A DNA stretch of 64,000 bases from Terriglobia bacterium (lineage in GTDB: Bacteria > Acidobacteriota > Terriglobia > JAIQFV01): positions 60,162 to 124,161 of the forward strand of contig JAIQFV010000009.1 of the NCBI GenBank assembly GCA_020073085.1, read 5' to 3'. The notes below the pieces were generated by a model that was not told where the DNA came from, ran no database searches, and saw nothing but the letters and a program-made list of their open reading frames with translations. The position numbers and the translations under genes are program-made. Positions 9,566 to 26,949 of this stretch are shown piece after piece. Numbering within the stretch: position 1 is the first letter of the stretch; the number at the start of each line of letters is the position of its first letter.

Positions 9566-12013
9566 ATGGATTCAATCCTGGCCGACATCCGGTACAGCCT
9601 GCGTCTGTTGTTCAAACACCCCGGCTTCACGGCCGTCGCCATTGCCACGCTGGCGCTGGGCATCGGAATCAACACCAGCATCTTCACTGTGTTCAACGCC
9701 CTTGCATTGCGCCCGCTTCCCGCGAAGGATCCCGGTAGTGTAGTGAGAATCTACGAGTCATTCGAGGATGGACCCCGATATGGATCCGCCTCCTACCCGG
9801 ACTTCATGGATTTCCGCGAACAAAACAATGTTCTCTCAGGGCTGGTTGCTTACACAGGAGCGGCGCTGCGGCTGGGCGAGAGCAGTGATCCCAACACCCC
9901 CACCGAATCGTTTCAGGGCACACTCGTCTCGGGAAATTTCTTTTCCGTCCTTGGAGTTGACGCGGTTGTTGGTCGAACTTTCATTCCGGAAGAGGATAAG
10001 ACACCCGGTTCGCATCCCGTGACGGTTTTGAGCTATGGTTTATGGCAAAGGAGGTTCGGTTCAGATCCCGGGGTGGTGGGAAAAACGCTGATTCTGAATT
10101 TCCATCCGTACACCGTGGTCGGGGTAGCTCCCAAGTGGTTCACCGGCTTGGAACCGACGGCCACGGATCTATGGATACCCCTGATGATGGAGGCTGAGGC
10201 GGTGCCCGGCGGCAACATCCTCAATAATCGCAATACCCATCGGCTCAAACTGGTGGGCCGGTTGAAACCCGGGGTGAGCCTGAAGCAGGCTGAAGCCCAA
10301 ATTTCAACCCTTGCCGCCCAACTCGATCGAACCGATGGCCAGCCTGTTGCCAAGACCAGAAAAGTCAGCGCGACGATCACCCCGAGCTCATTTCTGGATC
10401 CTACTGACCAAGCGAATGTTATTCCGGTCGCCATCCTTATGATGACTGCCGTCGGACTGGTCCTCCTCATCGCCTGTGCCAATCTCGCCAATCTGTTACT
10501 TTCGCGGGCCGCCTCACGGCAAAAAGAGATTGGAATCCGGCTGTCCTTGGGGGCCACCCGGGGCCGGCTGATCCGACAACTTTTGACCGAGAGCACCCTG
10601 CTTTCTCTGGGCGGGGGAATCACCGGACTTCTCCTTACTTTCTGGATTACGGACCTGCTCCTCAGGTTCGTCCATCCTCCGGGGGAGCTACCGCTCGCCA
10701 TCAATGTGAGCCCCGATGTCAATGTCTTCGTATACGCCCTGTTAATCTCCCTTGCGGCCGGAGTTGCGTTTGGCCTGCTCCCGTCCATGCAATCCACGAA
10801 GCTGAACCTCACATCGGCCTTAAAGGATGAAGGCACCCCCTTCGGACAACGGATCAGCCGCTCTCGACTGCGAAGTCTACTGGTGGGAGCACAGGTCGCG
10901 GTCTCCCTGGTCTTGTTGATCGGTGCCGGCTTGCTGGTGCGAGCGCTTCACAATGCCCAAACGACCGACCCGGGATTTGCCATGAAGGATGTCTTCGTTC
11001 TGTCCCCCGATCTGCGACTGCATGGCTACACCCCGGTCCGTGCTGCCGAATTTGACCGGGAACTTGTGGACAAGCTCCAATCCCTGCCGGGAGTCGAGTC
11101 CGTGGGGATGGCCTGGGTCATCCCCCTGGGCTCATCATTCTCCGATACCAATGTGGAGATCGAAGGCCACGAGACTCCTCCCGGGAAAAAATCGCCCATG
11201 GCCAATGTCAATTTTGTTTCCGGAAAATATTTTGATGCACTGGGCATTTCGATGGTTCATGGCCGAACTTTCACCGAACAGGAGATGGCGAAGGATTCGA
11301 AGGTTGCCCTTGTCAATGAATCGTTTGCACGACGCTTTTGGCCGGGAGAAGATCCCATTGGAAAACGGTTCAATTACGGCATTGAAATTGTTGGGGTCGT
11401 GAAGGACACCCGGAGCGTTTATCTCTGGTCATCGAGCGAGCCCATCGCGTATCGAACGGTCGAGCCGGATTTCCAGCCGGACATGAAATTCTTCGTTCGA
11501 ACTGACGGCAACTCAAAATACCTCTCGACGACGTTACCGGGGATTGTCGGAAGCATCGACGGCAGCGTACAGACTAATGTCAAAACGCTGGAAGATAATC
11601 TTCAGGGATGGCTGTGGCCCTCCCGCATGGGAGCGATGCTCTCCGCTGCACTCGGCCTGCTGGCCCTCTTGCTGGCCTCGGTGGGCATTTACGGCGTGAC
11701 CGCTTACGCGGTCAGCCAGCGGACCCACGAGATTGGCATTCGCCTGGCGCTGGGTGCGGAGCGGCGCGCTGTGCTTCACCTGGTTTTGAGGCAGGGAATG
11801 CGCCCGGTCATCGCAGGGATTGCCGCCGGCCTGGTGATTTCCATTGCGGCGACGAACCTGCTGGCAAAGTTCCTCTATGGGTTGAGCGCCGTTGATGTGG
11901 TGACGTTTGCCCTCGTGTCGGCGATTCTCGCGGCCGTGGCCGCGCTGGCGAATTACCTCCCTGCGCGTCGTGCGGCAAGAGTCAATCCGATGGTGGCGTT
12001 GCATTATGAGTAG
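9566..12013 (+). CDS. ABC transporter permease, duplicated FtsX (ADOP family)
   Basis: 815 aa. The N-terminus reads ILADIRYSLRLLFKHPGFT, with two FtsX blocks. The C-terminus ends PARRAARVNPMVALHYE. Confidence 0.85.
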   Translation: MDSILADIRYSLRLLFKHPGFTAVAIATLALGIGINTSIFTVFNALALRPLPAKDPGSVVRIYESFEDGPRYGSASYPDFMDFREQNNVLSGLVAYTGAALRLGESSDPNTPTESFQGTLVSGNFFSVLGVDAVVGRTFIPEEDKTPGSHPVTVLSYGLWQRRFGSDPGVVGKTLILNFHPYTVVGVAPKWFTGLEPTATDLWIPLMMEAEAVPGGNILNNRNTHRLKLVGRLKPGVSLKQAEAQISTLAAQLDRTDGQPVAKTRKVSATITPSSFLDPTDQANVIPVAILMMTAVGLVLLIACANLANLLLSRAASRQKEIGIRLSLGATRGRLIRQLLTESTLLSLGGGITGLLLTFWITDLLLRFVHPPGELPLAINVSPDVNVFVYALLISLAAGVAFGLLPSMQSTKLNLTSALKDEGTPFGQRISRSRLRSLLVGAQVAVSLVLLIGAGLLVRALHNAQTTDPGFAMKDVFVLSPDLRLHGYTPVRAAEFDRELVDKLQSLPGVESVGMAWVIPLGSSFSDTNVEIEGHETPPGKKSPMANVNFVSGKYFDALGISMVHGRTFTEQEMAKDSKVALVNESFARRFWPGEDPIGKRFNYGIEIVGVVKDTRSVYLWSSSEPIAYRTVEPDFQPDMKFFVRTDGNSKYLSTTLPGIVGSIDGSVQTNVKTLEDNLQGWLWPSRMGAMLSAALGLLALLLASVGIYGVTAYAVSQRTHEIGIRLALGAERRAVLHLVLRQGMRPVIAGIAAGLVISIAATNLLAKFLYGLSAVDVVTFALVSAILAAVAALANYLPARRAARVNPMVALHYE

Positions 12014-12112
12014 ATTGCGGATTTCGGATTGCGGATTTCGGATTACTCAACCCCAGCCGAGGGAATCTATCGCCCATCATTGCGGCATCCGAAATCCGCA
12101 ATCCACAATCTG
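12013..12112. repeat. Heptad-armed palindromic element, R class (GGATTGC arms)
   Basis: The arms are gattgcggatttcggattgcggatttcggatt ... ccgaaatccgcaatccacaatc. A paralog of the 5827-5912 element. Confidence 0.6.
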
Positions 12113-12226
12113 AAATTGGATTGGAACGTGGAGGGCATGAGAGATGCCCCTTCCACTCTTGATCACAGTGCCAAAACCCGGAGGCAGGCAAGAAACCTGC
12201 GCTCCAAACCTGACAAGGAGAATGTA

Positions 12227-12859
12227 ATGAAATCGAAGCTCATCGTCCTCGGCGTGTCAATCTTGACGCTGCTGCTATCGCTCCCCCGGCTCGTCCAGGC
12301 CCAGCCGAAGCAGCCCGCCATTGTCGCCTTTGGGAGCGACTCCCCGGAGCGGGGAACCACGCGCGTCGGGTACTGGAACACACAGAAGAACATGGGCACC
12401 GGCCAGTTTGCCGTCAATTACGGTCGTCCCGTGTGGAACAAGGATTATGAGGATCCCGCGAAGTTCGATCCCATGACCAAAGGCAAGACATGGCGGATGG
12501 GGAGCAACTTCTGGACGGTGCTCGACACGGATATGCCCCTCAAGATTTCCGGGAAGACCGTCCCCGCGGGGCTCTGGTATCTCGGCCTGCATCGGTCTGA
12601 GGACGGTAAGCAATGGAGTCTTGCGTTTATCGACCCGGTCAAGGCCCGGCGTGAACACGTTGATGCTTCGGAAATCGGCCGGGCGCCCACTGAATTCATG
12701 GTGCCGGTGACCATGGACCCTCCCGGCGATCTGAAAGAAAAGCTTGCAATCGACCTGGTTTTCAAGCGGCCCGATATTCAAAATGTCACTCTCAAAATTG
12801 CCTGGGGCACGCTCCGATTGAGCGCTCCGATCATCGTGCCGGTCCCAACCGGGAGCTAG
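12227..12859 (+). CDS. Hypothetical secreted protein
   Basis: An AAGGAGA SD lies 7 nt before the ATG. The N-terminus is a signal peptide (MKSKLIVLGVSILTLLLSLPRLVQAQ). The upstream in-frame extension to 12029 only reads through the R-class repeat. Confidence 0.6.
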   Translation: MKSKLIVLGVSILTLLLSLPRLVQAQPKQPAIVAFGSDSPERGTTRVGYWNTQKNMGTGQFAVNYGRPVWNKDYEDPAKFDPMTKGKTWRMGSNFWTVLDTDMPLKISGKTVPAGLWYLGLHRSEDGKQWSLAFIDPVKARREHVDASEIGRAPTEFMVPVTMDPPGDLKEKLAIDLVFKRPDIQNVTLKIAWGTLRLSAPIIVPVPTGS

Positions 12860-12896
12860 ATTACGAAGGCTGGGTTCGTGCTGAAACCTTGAATGA

Positions 12897-13033
12897 GGTG
12901 TCAGGTGCCGGGTGTCAGGTGTCAGAGTTCAAAGACATCACAGAATCTCGATGCTGCTTTTCTGATTACTGATTCGCTCGGCGGTTGGCAAAGACTATTG
13001 CATTAATCTGCCTGACACCCGACACCTGACACC
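12897..13033. repeat. Heptad-armed palindromic element, G class (GGTGTCA/GGTGCCG arms)
   Basis: The arms are ggtgtcaggtgccgggtgtcaggtgtcag ... cctgacacccgacacctgacacc. The right arm ends about 20 nt before the ADOP start codon. Confidence 0.65.
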
Positions 13034-13053
13034 TTTTTGACATGGATTGAAAA

Positions 13054-15606
13054 ATGGAAACCCTGTTTCAGGATCTTCGCTTCAGTCTTCGGATTCTGCT
13101 GAAGAATCCCGGCTTCACCCTGGTGGCGGTGCTGACCCTGGCCCTTGGCATCGGGGCCAACACCGCCATTTTCAGTGTTGTCAATGCGGTGCTGCTCCGG
13201 ACTCTCCCCGTCCCCCGTCCCCAGGAGTTGGTTGTTCTTGGAAACCCGGATGCCCATGGGATGAGTAATGGGAGCAGTTCGGGCGACCGGGACATTTTCT
13301 CCTATCACGAATTCGAACAGCTTCGCGATCAGAACCGGGTCTTCTCGAGCATCTTTGCTGCAGCGAGCTCCGTGAACTCCATGGACGGCTACTTCGACGA
13401 GACCGGGACGAGCGAACCTGCCGAGCCTGTCAAGGCCAGCCTTGTCAGTGGCGCTTTTTTCTCTGTGCTGGGTGCCAAGCCCATTCTCGGCCGGACCTTT
13501 ACACAGGAAGTCGACAGGGTCCCGGGAGTGAACCCGGTGGCAGTCATCAGCTATGATTTTTGGAGACGGCGGTATAGCCGGGATCCTTCCGTACTGGGAC
13601 GCACGGTCCGACTTCGTCAAACCACTTTTGAGATCATCGGGGTCACAGGTCCCGGATTTTTTGGTGAAACGGTCGGTGAATCGCCGGATTTGTGGGTGCC
13701 CTTGTCGATGCAAATGGCCGTGATCCCTGGAAAAAATCTCCTGGTCGATCCAAACAGCATCATGGAGAGAACCATCTGGATACAAATCATGGGGCGGCTA
13801 AGACCCGGGGTGAGTTTGGAACAAGCCAAGGCGAGCATCAACGTGACGTTTCAGCAGATGCTTCAAACGGATGCCAGTCCGAGCCTGACGGCAGACCAGC
13901 ACAAGGAGTGGATGGATCAACGAATTGCCCCGACGAGCGCCGCGAAAGGCGCATCGACGCTGCGGGGACGCTTTACCGATCCCCTCCGGATTTTGATGGG
14001 ATTGGTCGGACTCGTGCTTCTGATTGCCTGTGCCAATGTAGCCAACCTCCTGCTCTCGCGCGCGACCATGCGTCAGAAGGAAATTGCTATGCGGCTTGCA
14101 TTGGGTGCCCGGCCCTCCCGCCTGGTGCGACAGCTCCTGACCGAGAGTCTCCTGCTCGCGTTGGTGGGCGGAGGCGTCGGCCTTGTTCTCGCGCAATGGG
14201 CAAACAGTTTGCTGGTGCGCCTGGCGTCCGGCGGGCCGGACCTGATCTCGGTTGATCTTCATCCCGATGCTCGCATCCTGGGATTCACGCTTGCCCTCTC
14301 CATCCTCACCGGGGTCATGTTCGGATTGATCCCCTCGCTTCACTCGGCTCGGTTCGATTTGAACTCCATCCTCAAAGGCAGCGGCCGGGGTGCCACCGCT
14401 GACCGCGGCCGCAACCCCATCTCCAGAATGCCCGTGGGCAAGATCCTGGTCGTGGCGCAAGTGACCATATCTCTGCTGCTGCTGGTGGTGGCGGGACTTT
14501 TCGTGCGGAGTTTTCAAAAACTCGTGAACGTCGACCTCGGTTATAAACCTGACCGGTTCTTGTTGTTCCGAATCAACCCGCTTCAAAGCGGTTACCAAGG
14601 CGCCGCCCTGCTTCAGTTTCACCGGACCCTGCTGGAAAAAATCGCAGCAATTCCCGGCGTGCAGGGGGTGACCCTTTCGGAAAATGGTTTGTTCAGCCAC
14701 ACCGAGTCCGCCGACCCCATCTGGGTGGAGGGCTACACGCCGAAGACAGGCCCCGACAAGCATGCGCGATTCGATCAGGTGGGTCCCCGCTATTTTTCGA
14801 CGGTGGGCATCCCTGTGGTAGTGGGTCGTGATGTTGATCCGCACGATGGCGGAAATGGTCCGCGGGTCGGCTGGATCAATCAGACCATGGCCCGATTCTA
14901 TTTTCCAAATACGAATCCGCTGGGAAAACATGTCCGTGACGAGTATCCCGACAACCCCGGGGAATTTGAAATCGTGGGGGTCGTCGCCGATGCGAAGTAC
15001 AACAGCCTTCGGGAAAAGACGCCGCGACGGTTCTATGTCCCCTTTTTCCATCCGATCACCGAGGTGGCCGCCGCTAACTTCGAGATTCGCACCCGGGCAG
15101 AACCGGCGGCAGTCGCGGCTTCGCTCCGCGATCTGGTAAAGTCGTTGGATCGATCCCTCCCCACGCTGCATGTCCATACAATGACGGAACTGGTCGACCA
15201 ATCGTTGGCGCGGGAGCGCCTGATCACCAGTCTATCCGGATTATTTGGGACCCTGGCGGTGTTGCTCGCTTCCATTGGGCTTTACGCCGTCATGGCGTTT
15301 GCGGTGGCTCGAAGAACGAATGAGATCGGCATCCGCATGGCCCTGGGAGCGCAGCGCCGAAACGTCCTGGGGATTGTCATGCGGGAAACCTTGGTGCTGG
15401 TCCTGCTCGGGATCGGCATCGGACTGCCCGTGGTCTTTGCCACCACACGCCTGCTTTCACAACTGCTCTTTGGGCTGACGCCCGTCGACCCCGCCACAAT
15501 CTTGATGGCCACGGTGGGGATGATTTCAGTCGCTGCCCTGGCAGCCTATCTCCCGGCCCATCGGGCAAGCCGGGTGGATCCCATGGTGGCATTGCGATAT
15601 GAGTAG
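13054..15606 (+). CDS. ABC transporter permease, duplicated FtsX (ADOP family)
   Basis: 850 aa. Begins METLFQDLRFSLRILLKNPGFT. The C-terminus ends PAHRASRVDPMVALRYE. Confidence 0.9.
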   Translation: METLFQDLRFSLRILLKNPGFTLVAVLTLALGIGANTAIFSVVNAVLLRTLPVPRPQELVVLGNPDAHGMSNGSSSGDRDIFSYHEFEQLRDQNRVFSSIFAAASSVNSMDGYFDETGTSEPAEPVKASLVSGAFFSVLGAKPILGRTFTQEVDRVPGVNPVAVISYDFWRRRYSRDPSVLGRTVRLRQTTFEIIGVTGPGFFGETVGESPDLWVPLSMQMAVIPGKNLLVDPNSIMERTIWIQIMGRLRPGVSLEQAKASINVTFQQMLQTDASPSLTADQHKEWMDQRIAPTSAAKGASTLRGRFTDPLRILMGLVGLVLLIACANVANLLLSRATMRQKEIAMRLALGARPSRLVRQLLTESLLLALVGGGVGLVLAQWANSLLVRLASGGPDLISVDLHPDARILGFTLALSILTGVMFGLIPSLHSARFDLNSILKGSGRGATADRGRNPISRMPVGKILVVAQVTISLLLLVVAGLFVRSFQKLVNVDLGYKPDRFLLFRINPLQSGYQGAALLQFHRTLLEKIAAIPGVQGVTLSENGLFSHTESADPIWVEGYTPKTGPDKHARFDQVGPRYFSTVGIPVVVGRDVDPHDGGNGPRVGWINQTMARFYFPNTNPLGKHVRDEYPDNPGEFEIVGVVADAKYNSLREKTPRRFYVPFFHPITEVAAANFEIRTRAEPAAVAASLRDLVKSLDRSLPTLHVHTMTELVDQSLARERLITSLSGLFGTLAVLLASIGLYAVMAFAVARRTNEIGIRMALGAQRRNVLGIVMRETLVLVLLGIGIGLPVVFATTRLLSQLLFGLTPVDPATILMATVGMISVAALAAYLPAHRASRVDPMVALRYE

Positions 15607-15762
15607 GTGTCAGGGATCGGGTGTTAGGTGTCAGTTTGCCGGACTGGGGAATCCAAGAACACTTGCGACCGAAGCCAGAGGACAGAAGTCAGAAGAATCA
15701 AGAACCAATCGCTTACGTCGCTGACTCTCCACCCTGACACCTGACACCCGACACCTGGCACC
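15604..15762. repeat. Heptad-armed palindromic element, G class
   Basis: The arms are ggtgtcagggatcgggtgttaggtgtcag ... ccctgacacctgacacccgacacctggcacc. The core contains cagaagt/cagaaga heptads. Confidence 0.65.
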
Positions 15763-15775
15763 TTAAGGAACATCG

Positions 15776-18202
15776 ATGGAAACATTATTTCAAGATCTCC
15801 GGCACGGCCTTCGTTTACTGACGAAATCGCCCGGGTTCACCGTGGTCGCGGTGCTGACGCTCGCCCTGGGAATCGGCGCCAATACGGCCATTTTTAGCCT
15901 TGTCAATGCGTTCCTCCTGAAGCCCCTCGCATTCCCCCAGGAAAGTCAACTGATGGTCCTCACCGGCCAAACCCGCCAGGAGAAGCGAACCGGAATCTCC
16001 TATCCGGATTTTGAGGATTGGCGGAGGCAAAGCGGGTCTTTCTCCGCCCTTTCCACATGGATGACACAGAGTGTGAATCTGACCGGGGTGGAAGAGCCGC
16101 AGCGTGTGCGCGGCGGATTTGTCTCCGCCAATTTCTTCGATGTGTTGGGCATTAAGCCCGCGCAGGGCCGCGCCTTCCTCCCGGGAGAAGATCAGCCGGA
16201 GGGGGCGCGCGTCGTAGTGGTGAATTACGGCCTGTGGCAAACGCGCTTTGGGGCCGATCCGGGGTTTGTCGGAAAACAACTCACTCTCAATGGCGCAGTG
16301 TTTACGGTGGTGGGAATCCTCCCGCCATCCTTCGAGTTTCCGTTGGACAAGGATCGGGATGAAATCTGGATGCCCGTGTCCAGCTATCCCGACTTTTCTC
16401 GAGATCGCAGTGTCTCTAATCTCGTGGCGATCGGCCGCCTGAACCCAGCCACCACCCTTAGCCGGGCACAGGCGGAGATGAATACCATCGCGCAACGACT
16501 TGCGCAGGAGTACCCGGATATAGACGGGCAGCGCGGTGTGGTGGTCGCGCCCTTGCACGAAGTGGCTGTGGAAGAGGTGCGAACCTCCCTCCTGGTGCTG
16601 TTCGCCGCCGTGGGCTTTGTCCTGCTGATCGCGTGCGCCAATGTGTCAAACCTGATGCTTGCCCGAGCGTCCGGGAGACGGAAGGAACTAGCTCTGCGTT
16701 CCGCCCTGGGCGCCAGCCGTGGTCGATTGATCCTGCAGATGATCACGGAAAGCGCCCTGTTGTGGCTGGCAGGAGGGGCACTCGGCCTCCTGGTGGGCGA
16801 TTGGGCTCTACAGGCTATTCAGGCGTCGGCGCCCTTGGCTTTTCCCCCCGGCCTTGTCCCTCGCCTGGACGGAGTGGTCTTCGGGTTTACATTGTTGGTG
16901 GCGGTCGTGACCGGATTCCTTTCGGCGCTTGCTCCCGCGCTTCAGTTCTCCCGGCCGGATTTGAACAACACCCTCAAAGAGGGTGGGAGAATCTCAGGCG
17001 AAGGATCAGGTCAAGGATGGTCGCAGAAGCTGCTCCTGGTATCGCAGGTCGCACTTTCGTTGGTGCTTCTGGCCGGCGCAGGCCTGATGCTGAAGACGGT
17101 CCTCCGGCTCTCGGACATCAGTCCGGGGTTTCGCCCGGAGGATCTTCTGACCCTGGAGTACCGTCTACCTGACACGAAATACCCCGAGCCCGCACAACAA
17201 TGGAATTTCCACCGTGAGGTGGTCGACCGCGTGAGCGGGCTTTCGGGTGTGCGGTCGGCCTCGGTCTCCCTGGGAATCCCATTCAGTGGAAACATCGGCT
17301 CGGATCCGATGGTTTTGCTGGATCGCCCGGAACCTCCTCCAGGGGAAGAACCGATCGCGGAAACCAACCTGGTCGATACCCATTACTTCAAAACCATGGA
17401 AATCCCGCTCCTCGAAGGACGGTTGTTCTCCGACCAGGATCGGGCCGGAACACCTCGCGTCGCGATCATCAACCAGAACATGGCGCGGCGCTATTGGCCG
17501 GGACGTGATCCGTTGGGAAGCCAAATCCGGGTGCGCGATGAGTTGGCGCTCGTGGGGAGTGGACCGTCGACGATCATCGGCGTCGCCGGCAACGTGAAGC
17601 AGGAGGACCTGGAGGACCCGGCAAGCGCGCAAATCTATTTTGCCTTCCAACAGAACCCGTTCAAGTTCGCCACCCTGACCGTTCGGACACAGGGCGATCC
17701 CATGCTGTTTGCCAACACAGTTCGTCGGGCGGTGTGGTCAGTGGACAAGGACCAGCCCATGTGGAAGGTACGTTCCCTCGAATCGATGCTTGACCGCTCT
17801 CTTCGCGCGCGGCGGTACTTGATGTTCTTGCTCGGTATTTACGCAACCCTGGCGCTTGGGTTGGCAACGCTCGGGATTTACGGAGTACTTTCTTACGCGG
17901 TGAACCAGCGCTTCCAGGAAATCGGCGTGCGGATGGCTTTGGGGGCACAAACCGGAGATGTATTTCGTCTGGTCATTCGAGAGGGGATGCAATTGGTGCT
18001 TGCCGGCCTGGGGATCGGACTCGCCGGCGCCTTTGCTCTGACGCGATTGATGGCAGGATTGTTGTTCGGGGTGACGCCCACCGACCCATCAACGATGGCC
18101 GCCGTGTCAGCACTTCTGACGGGAGTGGCATTCCTGGGATGCTATTTGCCGGCGCGCCGGGCAACCCGCGTCGATCCGATGGCCGCACTGAGATGCGAGT
18201 AG
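15776..18202 (+). CDS. ABC transporter permease, duplicated FtsX (ADOP family)
   Basis: 808 aa. Begins METLFQDLRHGLRLLTKSPGFT. The C-terminus ends PARRATRVDPMAALRCE. Confidence 0.9.
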   Translation: METLFQDLRHGLRLLTKSPGFTVVAVLTLALGIGANTAIFSLVNAFLLKPLAFPQESQLMVLTGQTRQEKRTGISYPDFEDWRRQSGSFSALSTWMTQSVNLTGVEEPQRVRGGFVSANFFDVLGIKPAQGRAFLPGEDQPEGARVVVVNYGLWQTRFGADPGFVGKQLTLNGAVFTVVGILPPSFEFPLDKDRDEIWMPVSSYPDFSRDRSVSNLVAIGRLNPATTLSRAQAEMNTIAQRLAQEYPDIDGQRGVVVAPLHEVAVEEVRTSLLVLFAAVGFVLLIACANVSNLMLARASGRRKELALRSALGASRGRLILQMITESALLWLAGGALGLLVGDWALQAIQASAPLAFPPGLVPRLDGVVFGFTLLVAVVTGFLSALAPALQFSRPDLNNTLKEGGRISGEGSGQGWSQKLLLVSQVALSLVLLAGAGLMLKTVLRLSDISPGFRPEDLLTLEYRLPDTKYPEPAQQWNFHREVVDRVSGLSGVRSASVSLGIPFSGNIGSDPMVLLDRPEPPPGEEPIAETNLVDTHYFKTMEIPLLEGRLFSDQDRAGTPRVAIINQNMARRYWPGRDPLGSQIRVRDELALVGSGPSTIIGVAGNVKQEDLEDPASAQIYFAFQQNPFKFATLTVRTQGDPMLFANTVRRAVWSVDKDQPMWKVRSLESMLDRSLRARRYLMFLLGIYATLALGLATLGIYGVLSYAVNQRFQEIGVRMALGAQTGDVFRLVIREGMQLVLAGLGIGLAGAFALTRLMAGLLFGVTPTDPSTMAAVSALLTGVAFLGCYLPARRATRVDPMAALRCE

Positions 18203-18346
18203 GTGTCAGGTGCCGGGTGTCAGGTGTCGGGTGCCAGAAAACCGAATTACTCTGTTCTTTTACTTGTCTGCCGTTACCTCAAAGGACAGGCATTCCAAGA
18301 ACTGTGGGACTCTTCGCCCTGGCACCTGACACCCGACACCTGATAC
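18201..18346. repeat. Heptad-armed palindromic element, G class
   Basis: The arms are aggtgtcaggtgccgggtgtcaggtgtcgggtgccag ... ggcacctgacacccgacacctgatacc. Confidence 0.65.
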
Positions 18347-18365
18347 CTTATCGAAAAAAGGAAAA

Positions 18366-19985
18366 ATGAACATCTCGACGACAATGAATCCCAATCGCAC
18401 TAAACCCAAAGCTCTGATTGCCGACGACCAGACTGATGTCCTGGAAGCACTGCGGCTTTTGTTAAAGGGGGAAGGGTTTCACACGGAAACAGTCACTTCG
18501 CCCGCAGCGGTCATGACGGCCCTTCAAGACCAGAATTTTGACATCCTCCTGATGGATCTCAACTATGCCCGCGACACGACTTCCGGACAGGAAGGATTGA
18601 ACCTGCTTTCCCAGATTCGCGAACTCGATGCCACCCTTCCGGTCGTCGTGATGACCGCCTGGGGGACCATTGAGTTGGCGGTCGAAGCCATGCATCAAGG
18701 GGTTCAGGACTTTGTCCAAAAGCCCTGGGAAAACGAACGCCTGATGAGCATTCTTCGGACCCAGGTTGATCTCGGACGGTCGCGCCGCAAGCTACTTCAC
18801 CTGAAAACTGCAACTAAGAGTCTGGGCGAAAAAATCCGGGAGGTCTCCGAACTCAAACCCCTCATGGAGATTGTCTCTGCACACCTTCAAAGCGCTTTGG
18901 AGAGCGAGTCCATTGTGGTCTTCACACGCGCGCCCCATGAGCCAGCCTTCACGGTGGCTTCTTCCGTAGGTTTTCCGGAGGACGATATCGGCCGCTTAAG
19001 ATTTGACCTCAGCAGCCCGATCTTTGAGCTCCTCGAGGACCTGGTCCGGGTCGAAGGACAGGACTTCCCTTCCCACGAGAAATCCAAGCTGGAAGAGATG
19101 AAGGCCGCCCTCCTTGTCCCGGTTCGAATGGAAGGGACCCTCGTGGCTTTCCTTACCGTGGGATGTAAGAGAACGGGCCAGAGATACGATGAGCAGGACA
19201 GCAAGTTTTTGTCCACCATCGCAGGGCAAGTCGCCGCGGCCGTCAACCACTTGCGCTGGCAGGAGCAGGAGCGAGAGTTCAAGGAAGCCCGGGAGATCCA
19301 GCAGGGGTTGTTGCCCAAGGAGATCCCTCAGATCGCGGGATTTGAAATATCCGGGGCGTGGCAGCCCGCGCGCGCGGTGGGGGGAGATTATTATGATGTT
19401 TTCAAACTCAGCGACACGCAGATCGCCCTCTGCATCGCCGACGTGGTGGGTAAGGGAATGCCTGCGGCCTTGCTGATGTCCAATGTCCAGGCCGCTGTCA
19501 AAGCCTTTGCTTCGGAATTTGTTTCACCGAAGGAATTGTGCGCCAAGGTGAATCGCGTGATCAGCGGCAATATCGCCCCGGAGAGGTTTATCACGTCTTT
19601 TTACTGCGTCCTATATGCCCGGTCAAAGAAACTCGTATATACCAATGCGGGACACAACGCCCCGATGCTGGTGCGTCGCGACGGCTCGCTTTCCCGTCTG
19701 ACCAGAGGGGGCGCGGTGCTGGGGGTGTTTCGCGATGGCCACTACCAGGAGGCGGAGGTGGAGTTGATCTCCGGCGATCGCCTCATTTTGTTCACCGATG
19801 GGGTGACCGAATTGACCAACCCGGAGGGTGACGAATTCGGAGAAGATCGGCTCATTGAACTGGTGCGTGCAAATCTTCATTTGGGCGCCGATGAGCTGCA
19901 GCAGAAGGTAATGAACGCCATCGTGGAATTCAGCGGCGGAGAATTTCAAGACGATGCCACCATGCTGGTGCTGGCGGTGGAGTGA
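18366..19985 (+). CDS. Response regulator with a receiver domain and a PP2C-type (SpoIIE/RsbU-like) phosphatase output
   Basis: The N-terminal receiver has ALIADDQ..LLMDLNY..VVVMTAWG. The C-terminal PP2C region has GAWQPARAVGGDYYDVF, CIADVVGKGMPAALLMS and LFTDGVTE. Confidence 0.8.
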   Translation: MNISTTMNPNRTKPKALIADDQTDVLEALRLLLKGEGFHTETVTSPAAVMTALQDQNFDILLMDLNYARDTTSGQEGLNLLSQIRELDATLPVVVMTAWGTIELAVEAMHQGVQDFVQKPWENERLMSILRTQVDLGRSRRKLLHLKTATKSLGEKIREVSELKPLMEIVSAHLQSALESESIVVFTRAPHEPAFTVASSVGFPEDDIGRLRFDLSSPIFELLEDLVRVEGQDFPSHEKSKLEEMKAALLVPVRMEGTLVAFLTVGCKRTGQRYDEQDSKFLSTIAGQVAAAVNHLRWQEQEREFKEAREIQQGLLPKEIPQIAGFEISGAWQPARAVGGDYYDVFKLSDTQIALCIADVVGKGMPAALLMSNVQAAVKAFASEFVSPKELCAKVNRVISGNIAPERFITSFYCVLYARSKKLVYTNAGHNAPMLVRRDGSLSRLTRGGAVLGVFRDGHYQEAEVELISGDRLILFTDGVTELTNPEGDEFGEDRLIELVRANLHLGADELQQKVMNAIVEFSGGEFQDDATMLVLAVE

Positions 19986-19987
19986 GG

Positions 19988-20178
19988 AGCAGCTGTCAGT
20001 GGTCAGCAACCGGCCGTAACCGATCAGCTATCGGCTGTCAGGTATGAGTAGAGCAAAACATGTCAAAAGACTTAATCACTTCGTTGATCTGATCATCTCA
20101 ATCTGATGCTATCTGAGAGTCAAATGCTGACAGCTTATTACTCGCAACCGACCACTGACCACTGGCCACTGACAACTT
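19988..20178. repeat. Heptad-armed palindromic element, C class (CAGCTAT/CAGCGAT arms), carrying a micro-ORF
   Basis: The arms are gcagctgtcagtggtcagc..gatcagctatcggctgtcagg ... gctgacagc..accactgaccactggccactgacaac. Confidence 0.6.
20044..20106 (+). CDS. Candidate micro-ORF, family A (MSRAKHVKRLNHFVDLIISI, 20 aa)
   Basis: Its N-terminal 9 aa and most of its nucleotides are shared with the 26-aa copies at 26109, 22815(-) and 25530(-). It appears to be a shortened or degenerate member. Confidence 0.3.
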   Translation: MSRAKHVKRLNHFVDLIISI

Positions 20179-20188
20179 TCTGGAGACG

Positions 20189-22694
<2,506 letters not shown>

Positions 22695-22696
<2 letters not shown>

Positions 22697-22902
22697 GTGT
22701 CGGGTGTCGGCAAGCAGCCGTCAGCATTCAGCTATCAGCCATCAGGTGAAATTGGATTCATATGATTGGACTCAACGAGCTGTTCTCGTCTTTTGACATC
22801 TTTCACTCTAATCATAGCTGCCTGCTGATAGCTGATCGCTAACGGCTAATCACTGACAACTGAGAACTGACAACTGCTTGCTGACACCTGGCACCCGACA
22901 CC
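22695..22902. repeat. Composite nested palindrome with G-class outer arms, C-class inner arms and one Q-class right arm, carrying a micro-ORF
   Basis: From the outside in: gtgtcgggtgtcgg then cagccgtcagcattcagctatcagccatcagg, then the core, then ctgatagctgatcgctaacggctaatcactg, then gacaactgagaactgacaactg, and finally ctgacacctggcacccgacacc. Confidence 0.6.
22735..22815 (-). CDS. Candidate micro-ORF, family A (MIRVKDVKRREQLVESNHMNPISPDG, 26 aa)
   Basis: 81 nt, exactly the same length as the copies at 26109-26189 and 25450-25530. The differences between copies are mostly synonymous or conservative (I/V, R/K, ccg/cca/cct Pro). Confidence 0.4.
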   Translation of the reverse strand: MIRVKDVKRREQLVESNHMNPISPDG

Positions 22903-22916
22903 TTCTGGAGGTTAAG

Positions 22917-25352
22917 ATGGAAACCATATTCCAGGATCTTCGCTACGGCTTCCGGATGCTGCTGAAGAATCCCGGCTTCACCGCTGTGGGCATTTTGACG
23001 CTGGCGCTTGGGATTGGCGCCAACACGGCAATCTTCAGTGTCGCGGATGCATTCCTGCTGAAGCCGCTTTCGATCCCCAACGAAAATCGCCTGGTGGTCG
23101 CTCTTGAAGTGGGGCCGAATCAGAGAGGCGATGATACCTCCAGTGTCTCTCCTGCCAACTTTGAGGACTGGAAGAGGCAGGCCAAAGCCTACGAAGCCAT
23201 GGCCGCTTATGATTGGGCGAATGTCAATCTGACCGGTCAGGGGGAGCCCGAGAAGGTCCAGGGATTCGAAGTCACCTCAAATTTCTTCGGGGTCGTGGGT
23301 ATCCAGCCCACTCTGGGCCGGGTTTTCCTTCCCGAGGAGGAAAACCGCGGACATGAACAGGTGGTGATTCTCAGTCATGGCCTGTGGCAACGCCGGTATG
23401 CTTCAGACGCCAACATTGTTGGTAAGAACGTGACGGTTGACGGAAGCACCTTTGAGGTCGTCGGAGTCATGCCCGCGGGGTTCAACTTCCCCACCACCGC
23501 GGAGTTGTGGATGCCGCTCGCACTGGACTCAGCGGCCCGCAGCGTTCGAAACTCACACTACCTGTTTGCCCTAGGTCTGCTCAAACCCGGGATGTCCACC
23601 TCCTCCGCACGAGCCGAATTGAAGACGCTTGCAGCGCAGTTGGCCCAGGCTTACCCGACCACCAACAAGGGTTGGTCAGTTCGTGTCACGTCCATGCGGG
23701 ATTTTGTGACCCAGGACTTAACGCGCCAGTACACCCTGATGTCCGTGGTGGCAGTCGCCTTTGTGCTCCTGATCGCCTGTGCCAACGTCGCCAATCTCCA
23801 GTTCGCCCGGGCCACGAGCCGCCAGAGAGAGATGGCCGTGCGGGTGTCCCTGGGCGCAGGCCGCTGGCGGATCATGCGGCAGCTCTTGACAGAAAGCATT
23901 GCGGTGTCCTTGCTGGGAGCGGCACTCAGCTTGCTTTGGGCCCAATGGGCCATCGAACTTATCCTGGCACACATGCCTCCGGAGACCGCCAAATTTATCC
24001 CCGCCTGGAATCATATCCGCCTGGATTACCGGGCCTTCTTATACACTTTGACCCTGGCCCTGCTGACCGGGATCCTCTCCGGGTTGATCCCTGCTTTTCA
24101 GAGCTCAAAGCCGGACCTGAACGAAGCCCTAAAGGAAGGCGGGCGCAGTGCATCGGCCGGCCAATCGAAACATCGTCTGCGAAGTTTCCTGGTCATGGCT
24201 GAAGTGGCGTTGGCCCTGATTCTGTTGGTGGGATCCGGATTGATGGTGAAGAGCTTTAGAGCCCTGCTGAATCTGAACCAGGGACTTGACCCGAACAATG
24301 TCCTCACCCTCCGCGTCAATCTCCCCCCGGGCAAGTACAAGACGCCGCCGCAAAGGGCGGCCTTCTATGACCAGGTGCTGCAGAATCTGAAAATGATCCC
24401 CGGATTCGAAGCTGCTGCCACTGCAACCAATATCCCCTATGGGGATTATGGGAGCAACGCGCTCATCAGCGTGGAGGGCAAGCCCTCAGTGAATTCCTCG
24501 GACCTCCGCTCGGCCACGAACCAGGTCATTAGCCCCGACTATTTTCGAATGATGCACATTCCGCTGCGAGCAGGGCGCGAGCTCACCGGCCAGGACGGGA
24601 AAGATTCTCCACCCGTGGCGGTGGTGAGCGAGTTGCTGGCGCGCCGGAACTGGCCCAATCAAGACCCGATCGGCAAACGAGTGAAGTTGGGGCTCGAAAA
24701 CAGCAGCTACCCCTGGATGACCGTGGTGGGCGTGGTCGGCGACGTCAAATATGACTGGAGCGAGCGGGATCCGAAACCCGCCCTCTATCATCCATTTCAA
24801 CAAGCTCCCTCGCTGAACTCTTACGTGGCGATCCGCTCCCAGGGTGATCCCAGGCAGTTCATCTCGGCGGTGCGAGACGCGATTGCCCGGGTCGATCCCC
24901 AACAACCCCTCTCCGACATTAAAACGTTGGACAAGGTGATCTCAGATTCCACGGTCGGCATTGCCTATGTTGCCGTCATCATGAGCGTCCTGGCAGTCAT
25001 CGCGTTGATTCTTTCGACCGTGGGCGTCTTCGGGGTGGTGTCTTATCAGGTGACGGAGCGAATCCATGAAATCGGAATCCGCATGGCCCTCGGCGCCAAC
25101 CCGCGCGATGTGCTGGGGATGGTTGTTGCCCGCGGAGCCTGGTTAACATTCGTCGGCTTGGGAGTTGGACTCGTTCTCTCGATCGGCCTGGCGCGCCTGT
25201 TGGCCAGCCTGATCTTTGGAATCGAGGCGATGGATTGGCTCACCTTCGGAAGTGTTTCTGTGACACTCGCCCTGGCCGCCCTGCTGGCCAGTTATCTCCC
25301 CGCTCGGCGCGCCACCCGGGTGGATCCGGTGGTCGCGCTGCGGCATGAATGA
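22917..25352 (+). CDS. ABC transporter permease, duplicated FtsX (ADOP family)
   Basis: Starts at the METIFQDLRYGFRMLLKNPGFT methionine. The upstream in-frame Met at 22878 lies inside the repeat. The C-terminus ends PARRATRVDPVVALRHE. Confidence 0.9.
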   Translation: METIFQDLRYGFRMLLKNPGFTAVGILTLALGIGANTAIFSVADAFLLKPLSIPNENRLVVALEVGPNQRGDDTSSVSPANFEDWKRQAKAYEAMAAYDWANVNLTGQGEPEKVQGFEVTSNFFGVVGIQPTLGRVFLPEEENRGHEQVVILSHGLWQRRYASDANIVGKNVTVDGSTFEVVGVMPAGFNFPTTAELWMPLALDSAARSVRNSHYLFALGLLKPGMSTSSARAELKTLAAQLAQAYPTTNKGWSVRVTSMRDFVTQDLTRQYTLMSVVAVAFVLLIACANVANLQFARATSRQREMAVRVSLGAGRWRIMRQLLTESIAVSLLGAALSLLWAQWAIELILAHMPPETAKFIPAWNHIRLDYRAFLYTLTLALLTGILSGLIPAFQSSKPDLNEALKEGGRSASAGQSKHRLRSFLVMAEVALALILLVGSGLMVKSFRALLNLNQGLDPNNVLTLRVNLPPGKYKTPPQRAAFYDQVLQNLKMIPGFEAAATATNIPYGDYGSNALISVEGKPSVNSSDLRSATNQVISPDYFRMMHIPLRAGRELTGQDGKDSPPVAVVSELLARRNWPNQDPIGKRVKLGLENSSYPWMTVVGVVGDVKYDWSERDPKPALYHPFQQAPSLNSYVAIRSQGDPRQFISAVRDAIARVDPQQPLSDIKTLDKVISDSTVGIAYVAVIMSVLAVIALILSTVGVFGVVSYQVTERIHEIGIRMALGANPRDVLGMVVARGAWLTFVGLGVGLVLSIGLARLLASLIFGIEAMDWLTFGSVSVTLALAALLASYLPARRATRVDPVVALRHE

Positions 25353-25593
25353 CAGTTGCCAGCAAGCAGTTGCCAGTTGTCAGTTCTCAGTTCTCAGTTG
25401 ACAATCGCAAGAGGTTAGTGCTCAGCTATCAGTTTTCTGCAATCAGCGATCAGCCTTCAGCTGAAATAGGATTCAATGGACCGGGAGTAATGAAACATTC
25501 GAATCTCTTGATATGTTTGACCTCAATCATAGCTGACTGCTGAGAGCTGATCGCTGACGGCTGGTTGCTGGCAACTGACAACTGGCAACTATC
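25351..25593. repeat. Composite nested palindrome with Q-class outer arms and C-class inner arms, carrying a micro-ORF
   Basis: The outer arms are cagttgccagcaagcagttgccagttgtcagttctcagttctcagttg ... ggttgctggcaactgacaactggcaact. The inner arms are cagctatcag..cagcgatcagccttcagctg ... agctgactgctgagagctgatcgctgacgg. Confidence 0.6.
25450..25530 (-). CDS. Candidate micro-ORF, family A (MIEVKHIKRFECFITPGPLNPISAEG, 26 aa)
   Basis: 81 nt. The peptide is conserved with the copies at 26109 and 22815(-) through synonymous and conservative codon changes. Confidence 0.4.
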   Translation of the reverse strand: MIEVKHIKRFECFITPGPLNPISAEG

Positions 25594-25614
25594 TTTCAGA
25601 TCGGAGATTCCTCG

Positions 25615-26019
25615 ATGCCATCCTCTCGCGAGATCGGATATGCTCTGTTGCGAGTGACCTTGGGTGTCCTGTTTGCGACCTACGGGATCGGAAAATTCCG
25701 GATGGGGGTCGGCAACTTTGCCGGCATGATGGAAAAAGAGTTCACCGGGAAACTCCCGATGGTCATGGTCTCGCCGTTCGGTTATCTAGTACCGTTCGCT
25801 GAACTGCTGGTCGGTGTCCTGCTGACCTTCGGGCTTTTCACCCTTCTCGCGCTCACCCTGGCCGGGCTGCTCATGATTGCACTGACCTTCGGGATGGCCC
25901 TCTTGGGGCAGGCTCCCGTTGTCGCGCAAAACCTCACTTACGTCCTGGCGATTTTTGTTCTTTTGTGGACCGCGGAAAATAATGGATATTCATTGGATCG
26001 ACTGCGGCAGGGTAGGTAA
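25615..26019 (+). CDS. DoxX-family membrane protein
   Basis: 134 aa. Begins YALLRVTLGVLFATYGIGKF. Four predicted TM helices. Confidence 0.7.
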   Translation: MPSSREIGYALLRVTLGVLFATYGIGKFRMGVGNFAGMMEKEFTGKLPMVMVSPFGYLVPFAELLVGVLLTFGLFTLLALTLAGLLMIALTFGMALLGQAPVVAQNLTYVLAIFVLLWTAENNGYSLDRLRQGR

Positions 26020-26023
26020 CACT

Positions 26024-26244
26024 TGTCAGTTGTCAGTTGCCAGAAATAAGTTGCCAGGTCTCACTTGCCATCAAGGAGCTGTCAGCGATCGGCCATCAGC
26101 AGTCAGCTATGATTAGAGTGAGACACATCAAACAATATGAGGACTTCATTGATTCCAGTCACTTGAATCCGATTCCAGCTTATGGCTGATAGCTGAATGC
26201 TGACAGCTCTTTACTGGCAACTGACAACTGAGAACTGACAACTG
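26024..26244. repeat. Composite nested palindrome with Q-class outer arms and C-class inner arms, carrying a micro-ORF
   Basis: The outer arms are tgtcagttgtcagttgccag..gttgccag ... ctggcaactgacaactgagaactgacaactg. The inner arms are gctgtcagcgatcggccatcagcagtcagct ... ggctgatagctgaatgctgacagc. Confidence 0.6.
26109..26189 (+). CDS. Candidate micro-ORF, family A (MIRVRHIKQYEDFIDSSHLNPIPAYG, 26 aa)
   Basis: The start codon is the last heptad of the left C-arm (cagctATG). The stop TGA lies inside the right arm (ggcTGAtagctg). Confidence 0.4.
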   Translation: MIRVRHIKQYEDFIDSSHLNPIPAYG

Positions 26245-26269
26245 TATTTCCAACTTCACCCCCGGGGGA

Positions 26270-26938
26270 ATGATGATCAAACTCGTTGATTTGGAGAAGT
26301 TCTACGCTCATGGTGTTTCAAAGACCTTTGTGCTGCGGCGCGTGAGTTTTGATGTCCAGGAGGGAGAGTTCGTATCGATTATGGGCCCGTCGGGTGCAGG
26401 CAAATCCACGGTGCTCCATATCCTGGGGATGTACGACAGCGACTGGAGCGGCGAGTTCTATTTCCTCGACCAGCCGATTCACAAACTCGACAGGAAGAAA
26501 CGGGCGGAATTCAACAAGAAGTATGTCGGCTTCGTTTTTCAAAGCTACCACCTGCTGGACAACCTGACGGTCTATGAAAACCTCGAGATCCCCCTCTCGT
26601 ACCGGGACGTCAAGAAGAGTCAGCGAGAGAGCATTGTGTGCGATGTCCTGGATCGATTTCAAATTGTGGGCAAGAAGGATCTCTTTCCAAACCAGCTCTC
26701 CGGGGGACAGCAGCAGTTGGTGGCCGTCGCCCGAGCCGTGATCGCCAACCCCAAAGTCATTCTCGCCGACGAACCCACGGGGAACCTGCACTCCAGCCAG
26801 GGCGAGGAGATCATGGAGCTCTTCAAGAAGCTGAACGCCGAGGGGGCCACCATCATACAGGTCACTCATTCCGACAAGAATGCTTCTTACGGCAGCCGCA
26901 TCATCAAGCTCCGCGACGGATGGGTCGTGAATGATTAG
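26270..26938 (+). CDS. ABC transporter ATP-binding protein, MacB/LolD type
   Basis: Contains a Walker A (GPSGAGKSTVLHILG), the signature LSGGQQQLVAVARAV and a Walker B ([11 protein letters not shown]). Confidence 0.9.
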   Translation: MMIKLVDLEKFYAHGVSKTFVLRRVSFDVQEGEFVSIMGPSGAGKSTVLHILGMYDSDWSGEFYFLDQPIHKLDRKKRAEFNKKYVGFVFQSYHLLDNLTVYENLEIPLSYRDVKKSQRESIVCDVLDRFQIVGKKDLFPNQLSGGQQQLVAVARAVIANPKVILADEPTGNLHSSQGEEIMELFKKLNAEGATIIQVTHSDKNASYGSRIIKLRDGWVVND

Positions 26939-26949
26939 CGTTCCTGCCC

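Follow-up and report, generated by a model that had tools for sequence, protein, structure and literature searches.

A window of 64,000 nucleotides (nt) from an uncultured soil bacterium of the Terriglobia (Acidobacteriota; JAIQFV010000009.1, positions 60,162-124,161, forward strand) carries a cluster of large permease genes of the ADOP family, with a palindromic repeat at each gene junction. This cluster is probably an old, conserved unit, typical of its phylum, in which several permeases share ATPases and a periplasmic adaptor, and its palindromes a later overlay that did not create the array. The permease paralogs arose long before this lineage existed, and the palindromes are a genus-specific addition that turns over much faster than the genes. 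The original prediction, drawn from the letters of this stretch, had instead taken the permeases, most of them as orphans, to be consistent with a substrate-diversified family generated by repeat-mediated duplication.

Seven intact ADOP genes and two wrecks are found in the window, numbered here from left to right.

2528-4900, + strand: ADOP1, full TIGR03434 match (907 bits), solitary, with no heptamer palindrome on either side
9566-12013, + strand: ADOP2, 931.9 bits, the fifth ADOP gene of the co-directional cluster, left out of the interval 13054-25352 originally described
13054-15606, + strand: ADOP3, 850 amino acids (aa), 925.5 bits
15776-18202, + strand: ADOP4, 808 aa, 984.8 bits, the copy used for the structure model
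20189-22696, + strand: ADOP5, 835 aa, 934.8 bits
22917-25352, + strand: ADOP6, 811 aa, 987.6 bits
40520-42985, - strand: ADOP7, 846 bits, solitary, with a G palindrome separating its stop codon from the HIT gene downstream
35160-35516, + strand: N-terminal ADOP fragment, about 117 aa of the N-terminus left
54492-56253, + strand: ADOP pseudogene, broken by an in-frame stop at 55074 and by a frame change near 55427, with residues ~313-532 (about 220) lost

All seven intact proteins match TIGR03434 ('ADOP family duplicated permease', NCBIfam; cutoff 622.3 bits) end to end, over profile positions 1-803, with 846-988 bits. Each contains two MacB_PCD and two FtsX Pfam domains, which amounts to an internal duplication. 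A full-length match to the profile hidden Markov model, a duplicated permease unit and an acidobacterial host with a large paralog family are thus found together, and the window genes are ordinary members of a curated family with long-described traits; the repeat overlay is their only unusual part. The original prediction had correctly recognised the four co-directional genes of 13054-25352 (all on the + strand, 925-988 bits), their common N- and C-terminal motifs, the further full-length copies at 2528, 9566 and 40520(-) (907, 932 and 846 bits), as well as the truncated fragment at 35160 and the disrupted pseudogene at 54492. Its total of ten ADOP loci comes down to nine. The longest open reading frame (ORF) of ADOP6 begins at TTG 22878, and the gene callers used on contigs L001, L002 and L004 choose the ATG that gives 811 aa. 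Exact copies of the ADOP4 protein are present on 13 metagenome contigs, and the 54492 pseudogene has the same broken form in other assemblies. The closest genome records are Terriglobia metagenome-assembled genomes (MAGs), whose regulator is 88-92% identical to that of the window.

The age of the duplications is indicated by several converging comparisons. The seven intact paralogs are only 33-43% identical to one another, and adjacency does not mean closeness: the neighbouring pairs 3-4, 4-5 and 5-6 each share 37% identity, compared with 43% for ADOP1 and ADOP4 and 41% for ADOP4 and ADOP6, and the closest window paralog of ADOP3 is ADOP5 (40%). Every window copy has a one-to-one ortholog in the congeneric loci L007 and L009 (MAGs JAIQFY01 and JBGQBO01), at 81-91% identity (89% for ADOP3). 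A neighbour-joining tree (simple distances, no support values) shows deep splits between the paralog lineages, which are interleaved with copies from Blastocatellia, Acidiferrales and Acidobacteriales. A database search also returned relatives of ADOP4 in Acidiferrales and Blastocatellia that are 50-65% identical to it, above any paralog of the window. The low identity between paralogs, the one-to-one orthologs, the interleaved tree and these closer relatives elsewhere show that the duplications predate the orders.

Third-codon identity is about 0.40 across the first and last 99 nt of the ADOP genes, so that synonymous sites are saturated and the conservation of the termini reflects selection at the protein level. 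Gene conversion at the ADOP termini, moving palindromes along with them, was also considered; the same third-codon value rules out recent conversion.

The four genes originally described are only the middle of the real unit, which extends over 7253-26938 with all genes on the + strand, in the order adaptor, ATPase1, ADOP2, DUF2911, ADOP3, ADOP4, regulator, ADOP5, ADOP6, DoxX, ATPase2. Its components other than the permeases, together with a third ATPase gene of the window, are as follows.

7253-8521, + strand: HlyD/MacA-type periplasmic adaptor (Pfam HlyD_3 and HlyD_D23; NCBIfam RND_mfp and, weakly, DarC), first gene of the cluster
8647-9351, + strand: ABC ATPase of type 1 (ATPase1; ABC_tran), with a MacB/LolD/DarD-type nucleotide-binding domain, directly upstream of ADOP2
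12227-12859, + strand: DUF2911 protein (Pfam DUF2911), between ADOP2 and ADOP3, kept in L007 and L009 only
18366-19985, + strand: response regulator-GAF-PP2C (SpoIIE) phosphatase (Pfam Response_reg, GAF, SpoIIE/PP2C)
25615-26019, + strand: small DoxX/MauE-type membrane protein (Pfam), kept in L007 and L009
26270-26938, + strand: ABC ATPase of type 2 (ATPase2), closing the cluster, with 43% identity to type 1
53528-54241, + strand: ABC ATPase, second type-1 copy (ATPase3), 75% identical to ATPase1, directly upstream of the 54492 wreck

The window, L007 and L009 have one and the same gene order from ATPase1 through ATPase2, including the adjacency of ATPase1 and ADOP2. Variants of the same module are seen further away. 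In the Pyrinomonadaceae loci L016 and L018, the adaptor, ATPase1, ATPase2 and the response regulator are followed by three or four ADOP genes, and the short contig L019 keeps this order up to the first ADOP gene. L022 has adaptor, ATPase1, ADOP and ATPase2, with the regulator further on. The Acidiferrales chromosome L207 has three ADOP genes, the regulator (a receiver-SpoIIE gene), one ADOP, ATPase2, one ADOP, another gene and two more ADOPs within an eight-ADOP array. The regulator is a conserved member of ADOP arrays and not an interruption of them, as had been supposed: in all 14 regulator loci (L007-L020), which span Terriglobia and Blastocatellia, its orthologs (47-92% identity over the best-aligned segment) have one to six ADOP genes directly downstream.

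The three partner ATPases and the single adaptor counted in the original prediction are confirmed. The best NCBIfam matches of the ATPases are DarD and MacB (for ATPase1, DarD, MacB, LolD and YbbA), and all three are of the MacB/LolD/DarD type with intact catalytic motifs (in ATPase1, the Walker A, Q-loop, LSGGQ, Walker B and H-loop are canonical). They fall into two orthogroups, with ATPase1 and ATPase3 in type 1 and ATPase2 in type 2. Type-1 orthologs are 77-79% identical across orders and always lie behind an adaptor gene, the adaptor orthologs (55-57% identity) preceding them in L016, L018, L019, L022 and L042. Type-2 orthologs, 68-70% identical across orders, adjoin type 1 in L016, L018 and L019 and lie inside the ADOP array of L207. 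The two types may form separate homodimers or a heterodimer. Most permeases had been described as orphans, a label which fits the cluster poorly. ADOP2 and the 54492 wreck each directly follow an ATPase gene, at a distance of 214 nt from the end of ATPase1 for ADOP2 and of 250 nt from that of ATPase3 for the wreck, and ADOP3-6 are bracketed by ATPase1 and ATPase2 in one cluster. ADOP1, ADOP7 and the internal ADOPs of the array have no adjacent ATPase gene, and the array ends two genes before ATPase2.

The structural features of the permeases bear directly on how they could be energized. The AlphaFold2 model of ADOP4 (predicted local distance difference test score, pLDDT, 84.5; predicted TM-score, pTM, 0.72) has eight transmembrane (TM) helices and two periplasmic core domains, with residues 402-413 forming a disordered linker. 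Foldseek ranks YbbP of E. coli YbbAP first (9ge6_A, E = 7e-21, a full-length match), ahead of MacB, LolCDE, BceAB and HrtBA; YbbP, MacB, LolC/E, HrtB and BceB are all matched with probability 1.00. The ADOP halves match MacB chains of the PDB by sequence (5nik, 5gko, 5lil), and the elements of the MacB fold, namely TM1, a periplasmic core, TM2-4 and long stalk helices, are recognized in the model and in the Foldseek alignments. A motif RxxE(I/L)(G/A)xRxALGA is present in the cytoplasmic loops TM2-3 and TM6-7, in both halves of the seven paralogs. It is near-invariant over 71 homologs, with R301, E304, R308, G312, A313, G717, R719 and G723 invariant, and helices 302-310 and 713-721 of the ADOP4 model lie at the positions of coupling loops. 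In the pseudo-symmetric single chain of YbbP, the TM2-3 and TM8-9 loops (of 10 TM helices) are the coupling helices that touch two YbbA ATPases (PMC12646458). YbbAP-TesA (PDB 9GE6; PMC12646458) and the ADOPs share this design of one pseudo-symmetric chain mimicking a MacB dimer, with two coupling helices. They differ in that the 10 TM helices of YbbP include a linking pair, TM5-6, whereas the ADOPs have 8 TM helices, a short cytoplasmic linker and two full MacB-like periplasmic cores; ADOP4 and YbbP are only about 13% identical, and no TesA-like partner is evident at the ADOP cluster.

These likenesses suggest that the ADOPs are ATP-driven type VII ABC permeases. Each would be a single-chain pseudo-dimer of two MacB-type halves, each half with a periplasmic core domain set between its first TM helix and three further ones, for eight helices in all. 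Since the coupling motif is kept in both halves of all paralogs, shared ATPases become likelier. Permeases also outnumber ATPases here and in related loci (seven intact versus three in the window, eight versus one in L207, six versus none in L208), which makes sharing a sensible reading. Several permeases, up to the five of the cluster, would most likely draw on its ATPases and adaptor, with the response regulator/PP2C protein controlling the set. The periplasmic domains are indeed the least conserved regions of the ADOPs (pairwise identity 0.19-0.35, versus 0.4-0.68 in the membrane segments and termini), as had been noticed originally, and this divergence would give the copies different specificities for the substrates or partners to be extruded from the membrane or the periplasm. 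Of the two earlier options, that permeases 'share ATPases or act differently', the first is thus the likelier, given the coupling motifs and the ATPase orthogroups travelling with the arrays; acting differently appears less likely.

A parallel can also be drawn with MacAB-TolC and DarBCD (the darobactin exporter), in which an adaptor, a MacB-type ATPase and an FtsX-domain permease are likewise associated in one operon, as at 7253-12013. Here, in contrast, the ATPase is encoded by a gene of its own, the permease is duplicated within one chain, one adaptor is available for up to five permeases, and no gene for an outer-membrane duct lies nearby. The known features of the ADOP family are recovered as well: MacB_PCD and FtsX units duplicated within the chain, an acidobacterial host, a large number of paralogs, and permeases in excess of ATPases. 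What differs is that two window copies lie directly behind a MacB-type ATPase and that the array is bracketed by an adaptor and by ATPases of types 1 and 2. Literature retrieved under the full family name is very sparse. The family was first noted in genomes of Acidobacteria (Ward et al. 2009, as cited in PMC3914696). Genomic island 43 of Psychroflexus torquis has a cluster of about ten ADOP paralogs and other transporter genes, some of them ATP-binding, and the proteins are abundant (PMC3914696). The P. torquis cluster differs in belonging to a Bacteroidota and in lying on an island with transposases, and no conserved PP2C regulator or junction palindromes are reported for it (PMC3914696).

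An inverted repeat occupies every junction of the cluster between 8522 and 26269, with arms of 24-60 nt that are 71-96% complementary, and these intergenic regions are predicted to form long hairpins. The arms are tandem arrays of heptamers, of the types GGTGYCR (G), CAGTTSY (Q), CAGTGGT, CAGCNNT and GCGGATT (C), and all units except GCGGATT can be written as xxCAGxx. Period-7 CAG/CTG arrays number 38 in the window versus 2.4 in shuffled sequence. Their polarity is fixed, 5'-(xxCAGxx)n...(xxCTGxx)n-3': a CTG array follows within 400 nt downstream of 15 of 20 CAG arrays, and precedes only one of the 20. The left arm starts at the stop codon or within a few bases of it (TAG followed by GTGTCAGG...), and the right arm ends 10-30 nt ahead of the next start codon, just before the ribosome-binding site. 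Some elements are nested, with outer arms, inner CAGCNNT arms and a core of about 80 nt (core A), whose copies are about 75% identical, occur in either orientation and are found in this genus only. The palindromes are identical across independent assemblies of the same species and are therefore not assembly artefacts. The elements of the cluster, and that beside ADOP7, are the following.

8526-8640: Q arms (CAGTTNN), adaptor/ATPase1 junction
9356-9545: Q arms, ATPase1/ADOP2 junction
12014-12116: C arms (GCGGATT/TCGGATT), ADOP2/DUF2911 junction, starting right after the ADOP2 stop codon
12896-13034: G arms (GGTGYCR) of 24 nt, 96% complementary, DUF2911/ADOP3 junction
15605-15763: G arms, ADOP3/ADOP4 junction
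18196-18353: G arms, ADOP4/regulator junction, RNA fold of -80.3 kcal/mol, z = -8.8
19990-20176: CAGTGGT arms with inner CAGCNNT arms and core A (reverse), regulator/ADOP5 junction
22696-22902: nested element, G arms outside and CAGCNNT arms inside, with core A (about 80 nt) and a Q block on one side only, ADOP5/ADOP6 junction, z = -7.7
25350-25592: Q outer arms, inner arms and core A, ADOP6/DoxX junction
26019-26246: Q outer arms, inner arms and reversed core A, DoxX/ATPase2 junction
40282-40521: G palindrome between the ADOP7 stop codon and the downstream HIT gene

The z values are relative to dinucleotide shuffles, for the two junction hairpins tested. The original statement that every junction carries a palindrome holds for the whole interval 8522-26269; it fails at both ADOP1 junctions and on the promoter side of ADOP7, where none is present. 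The 54492 pseudogene is also flanked by palindromes, of Q type at 54245-54483 and of G type at 56252-56420. In a promoter and terminator scan, none of the junction hairpins had a U-tract terminator and promoters were not in excess, and no tRNA gene was found by scanning.

The palindromes are far less stable in evolution than the genes they separate. The ADOP3/ADOP4 junction has G arms in the window, Q arms with core A in L007, and a G and Q composite in L009. The DUF2911/ADOP3 junction is of G type in the window; in both L007 and L009 it is of Q type and has another core, about 150 nt long. The regulator/ADOP5 junction measures 203 nt in the window, 106 nt of purely G type in the further sister-species locus L008, and 347 nt in a composite form in L009. 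The ADOP2/DUF2911 hairpin is kept in the window, L007 and L009, with three compensatory pairs that weakly support selection on pairing. The ADOP arrays of L012, L014, L016, L018, L020 and L207 have junctions of 23-209 bp devoid of heptamer palindromes. More generally, other ADOP arrays contain zero to three short heptamer arrays per locus, at or near the background, and none is a comparable junction palindrome; the density in other Acidobacteriota loci is 0.43 per 10 kb over 1.15 Mb. Since the same junction differs in class between sister species, and arrays of other lineages have no palindromes, the repeats postdate the duplications. Repeat class is likewise unrelated to ADOP phylogeny, which it had been expected to follow, the orthologous junctions of sister species carrying other classes.

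Another core, of about 160 nt (core B), lies inside Q-armed palindromes at L007 4438-4517 and at L009 860-1019, 4415-4574 and 11746-11906, with 74-79% identity between copies; it is absent from the window. In the Blastocatellia MAG locus L011, a heptamer palindrome made of GATTTTA/GATTTTG units and their inverse lies at 9789-9960, just upstream of the ortholog of the response regulator-PP2C gene. Paired heptamer arrays are therefore not limited to the genus of the window, though rare elsewhere.

Within the genus, the distribution of these arrays is strongly uneven. A palindrome is present at 13 of 16 ADOP-flanking junctions versus 4 of 18 others (Fisher p = 0.0016, the junctions not being independent), and the array density reaches 8.6-12.9 per 10 kb in ADOP-bearing segments, an association that rests on roughly 115 kb of sequence. 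The ADOP-free part of the window at 1-7000 contains a single array, just upstream of ADOP1. No heptamer array was found at 27-34.8, 43.3-53.4 and 59.2-64 kb of the window, in L025 and L060 (21 kb each, from the MAGs of L007 and L009), or in the 10 kb of L211 downstream of the Ysc84 gene, about 7 kb of which extend past the right end of the window.

Several observations weigh against the picture of an old cluster with shared ATPases and an unrelated repeat overlay. The confinement of the arrays to ADOP-bearing segments is not accounted for by it and hints at a functional or mechanistic link. The ADOP arrays of L011, L012, L014 and L208 have no ATPase within 10 kb, and ADOP1 and ADOP7 are solitary. 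No TolC/OEP outer-membrane duct gave a Pfam match among the window ORFs scanned, such a gene possibly lying elsewhere in the genome. The depth of the paralog splits is partly read from the unsupported distance tree mentioned above. Lastly, TIGR03434 ('Acidobacterial duplicated orphan permease') owes its name to a lack of adjacent ATPase genes, and its description has the members never adjacent to an ATPase, a wording that ADOP2 and the 54492 wreck do not fit.

What the palindromes themselves are is a separate question. They could well be selfish mobile elements resembling MITEs (transposable elements of the miniature inverted-repeat kind), spread locally and without any role for the ADOPs, a possibility to be taken seriously even if it falls short of an even chance. 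They would then be miniature relatives of heptamer-armed elements that carry a gene for a four-helix-bundle protein (23S rRNA intervening-sequence protein). Such a PF05635/TIGR02436 gene (36714-37064, - strand) lies exactly between a GGTGYCR array at 36560-36597 and its inverse at 37178-37215, and heptamer inverted repeats may thus be the ends of elements carrying it. G arrays are indeed widespread: at least 80 metagenome loci contain (GGTGYCR)x3, in contigs of 36-76% GC. Among the matches listed, none of 80 has an ADOP gene, and the G-array class is therefore not tied to ADOPs in general. Among the same listed matches, a PF05635 homolog lies 26-85 nt from a GGTGYCR array in 4 of 80 otherwise unrelated loci, one of which (L099) has arms on both sides. 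The literature on the four-helix-bundle family yielded nothing on flanking repeats. The nested architecture, the cores repeated in either orientation in this genus only, and the turnover of presence and class at orthologous sites are also what mobile elements would produce. On the other hand, no transposase or integrase gene was seen among the window ORFs scanned, and no target-site duplication is evident on reading the flanks, which is not a systematic test. Random spread would also hardly give about one array per kb in ADOP segments when some 80 kb of further sequence from this genus has almost none.

It is this last feature, together with the placement of the elements, that speaks for functional intercistronic RNA elements, a reading that is possible but unlikely. 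The hairpins would be processed (for example by RNase III), protect 3' ends or uncouple translation, and would set differing levels of the many permeases relative to the few ATPases. They fill the space from stop codon to ribosome-binding site, with a very strong predicted stability and a fixed polarity. The junction is occupied in every congener even after sequence replacement, and pairing is kept with some compensatory changes. Related TAACTGA heptamers upstream of start codons elsewhere have also been proposed as post-transcriptional sites (PMC4679880). Such a role is difficult to reconcile with the other Acidobacteriota ADOP arrays, which work without palindromes, and with sequence classes that differ freely and a core A found in both orientations. 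No Rfam family matched at gathering thresholds anywhere in the window, and at E <= 1 the interval 8400-27600 gave only a chance microRNA-precursor match on the C-type hairpin.

In a bolder form of this reading, the heptamer elements might have been recruited specifically to ADOP clusters in this genus, as intercistronic RNA hairpins (sites of processing, stability or translation uncoupling) that tune the permeases against two shared ATPases; we regard this as rather improbable. Their kin would be, in this proposal, the heptamers of cyanobacteria and Beggiatoa and the inverted repeats flanking four-helix-bundle genes. If true, it would provide the first function for this widespread repeat class. 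Tandem heptamer repeats are known in cyanobacteria as short tandemly repeated repetitive (STRR) sequences, and the repeat overlay of the window is a variant of the known class of heptamer repeats. A 'ttgtcagttgtcagttgtca' repeat has been described in Nostoc PCC 7120, with the unit TTGTCAG present 44 times (PMC2408588), and this unit is the Q unit of the window. That report on the hyp operon was the only one found by a literature search with the heptamer strings. In Beggiatoaceae, Cyanobacteria and Bacteroidetes, TAACTGA direct repeats are located just upstream of start codons, and the survey by MacGregor lists 169 direct sets and one inverted set (PMC4679880). The start-proximal right arms of the window, (C/G)AACTGA, are one base away from TAACTGA. 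Unlike these known heptamers, those of the window form inverted pairs of fixed polarity, enclose 60-180 nt, combine nested classes and are concentrated at ADOP loci.

As regards the permeases, the alternative to shared ATPases is that the ADOPs work without any, as sensors or scaffolds signalling to the PP2C regulator and to a sigma-54 two-component system, as BceB does to BceS. Permeases far exceed ATPases, a response-regulator phosphatase is conserved inside the arrays, in the window (57509, 59173) as in L207 a sigma-54 response regulator and a kinase come after ADOP genes, and BceAB is among the structural matches. The retention of both coupling-helix motifs in every paralog, and the two highly conserved MacB-type ATPase orthogroups that accompany the arrays, make this a poor prospect.

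Construction of the array by the repeats, as originally proposed, is very improbable. It would explain why each array junction has a palindrome and why palindromes cluster at ADOP loci in this genus. It also finds some echo in the 35160 fragment, where coding similarity ends exactly at the start of a G-type element (35505-35700), and the elements may therefore have caused at least one deletion. This only hint of a repeat-associated rearrangement points to loss, not gain. Repeat-mediated duplication as the origin of the family is contradicted by paralogs as distant as 33-43% with saturated synonymous sites, by adjacent copies no closer than distant ones, by orthologs in other orders closer than paralogs, and by the change of repeat class at the same junction in sister species and its absence from the arrays of other lineages. 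An integron-like cassette array with attC-type sites, which co-directional ORFs each trailed by an imperfect palindrome of variable sequence might evoke, can practically be discarded, because synteny is conserved (three species have the same gene order, which also holds in part across classes), and also in view of palindromes between non-cassette genes, the lack of an integrase gene among the window ORFs scanned, and heptamer arms without attC-type R and L boxes, as judged by reading only, with no search run.

The interest of the cluster with shared ATPases lies in the position of the ADOPs among the largest paralogous families of soil Acidobacteriota, with no known substrate or demonstrated energy source. 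The locus and its relatives offer a testable module, in which a specific shared-ATPase hypothesis replaces the 'orphan' label. The additions made here are modest: a conserved module with a PP2C regulator and two ATPase orthogroups, the conserved coupling motifs that argue for ATPase dependence, and a clear distinction between old duplications and young repeats. For ADOP biology the junction repeats are less important than was first held, and they provide a tractable case for heptamer-repeat function through their confinement, their fixed polarity and their link to a four-helix-bundle gene.

Some further features of the window deserve mention. Three genes with a DUF4097 'toastrack' domain (35663-36547, 52492-53331 and 56441-57421) each stand beside an ADOP wreck or an ATPase gene, and the same neighbourhood contains an extracytoplasmic function (ECF) sigma/zf-HC2 anti-sigma pair at 50182-51578 and the sigma-54 response regulator and histidine kinase at 57509-60513. 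The latter pair also terminates the ADOP array of L207. These neighbours hint at a link to envelope-stress signalling. Sigma-54 promoters (TGGCAC-N5-TTGCW, one mismatch) gave two matches versus 2.1 expected, none of them in junctions, and no PadR regulator was seen beside the ADOPs among the small ORFs scanned.

Directly after the stop codon of ATPase2, a 92-nt unit is repeated 4.4 times in tandem (26972-27380, 94% matches), with a hairpin inside each unit (GGTGCCGCAGGCATC...GATGCCTGCGCC); contig L001, from the same species, follows the window through two units and then diverges. The segment that follows, 27500-30300, has a low GC content (48-53% versus about 57%), and encodes a SocA/Panacea-domain helix-turn-helix (HTH) antitoxin-like protein (27895-28683, - strand) and an HTH_66 protein (29078-29746, - strand). 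It resembles an island inserted at the end of the ADOP cluster, and further palindromes, nested and of a different kind, follow at 30009-30246 and 30050-30202. On the left side of the window, within 5885-5976, a C-type heptamer run (TCCAGAATCCGAAATCCGCAATCCACAAT) is found at the 3' end of the methyltransferase ORF; a near-perfect 24-nt hairpin then follows (5921-5976), at the convergent junction with a dehydrogenase gene. Finally, the junctions at 33550-33585 and 57440-57480, which have no heptamer palindrome, have in common a different, GC-rich hairpin (GCAGGGCGATCC ... GGATCGCCCTGC), which may represent a second small repeat family or a type of terminator.

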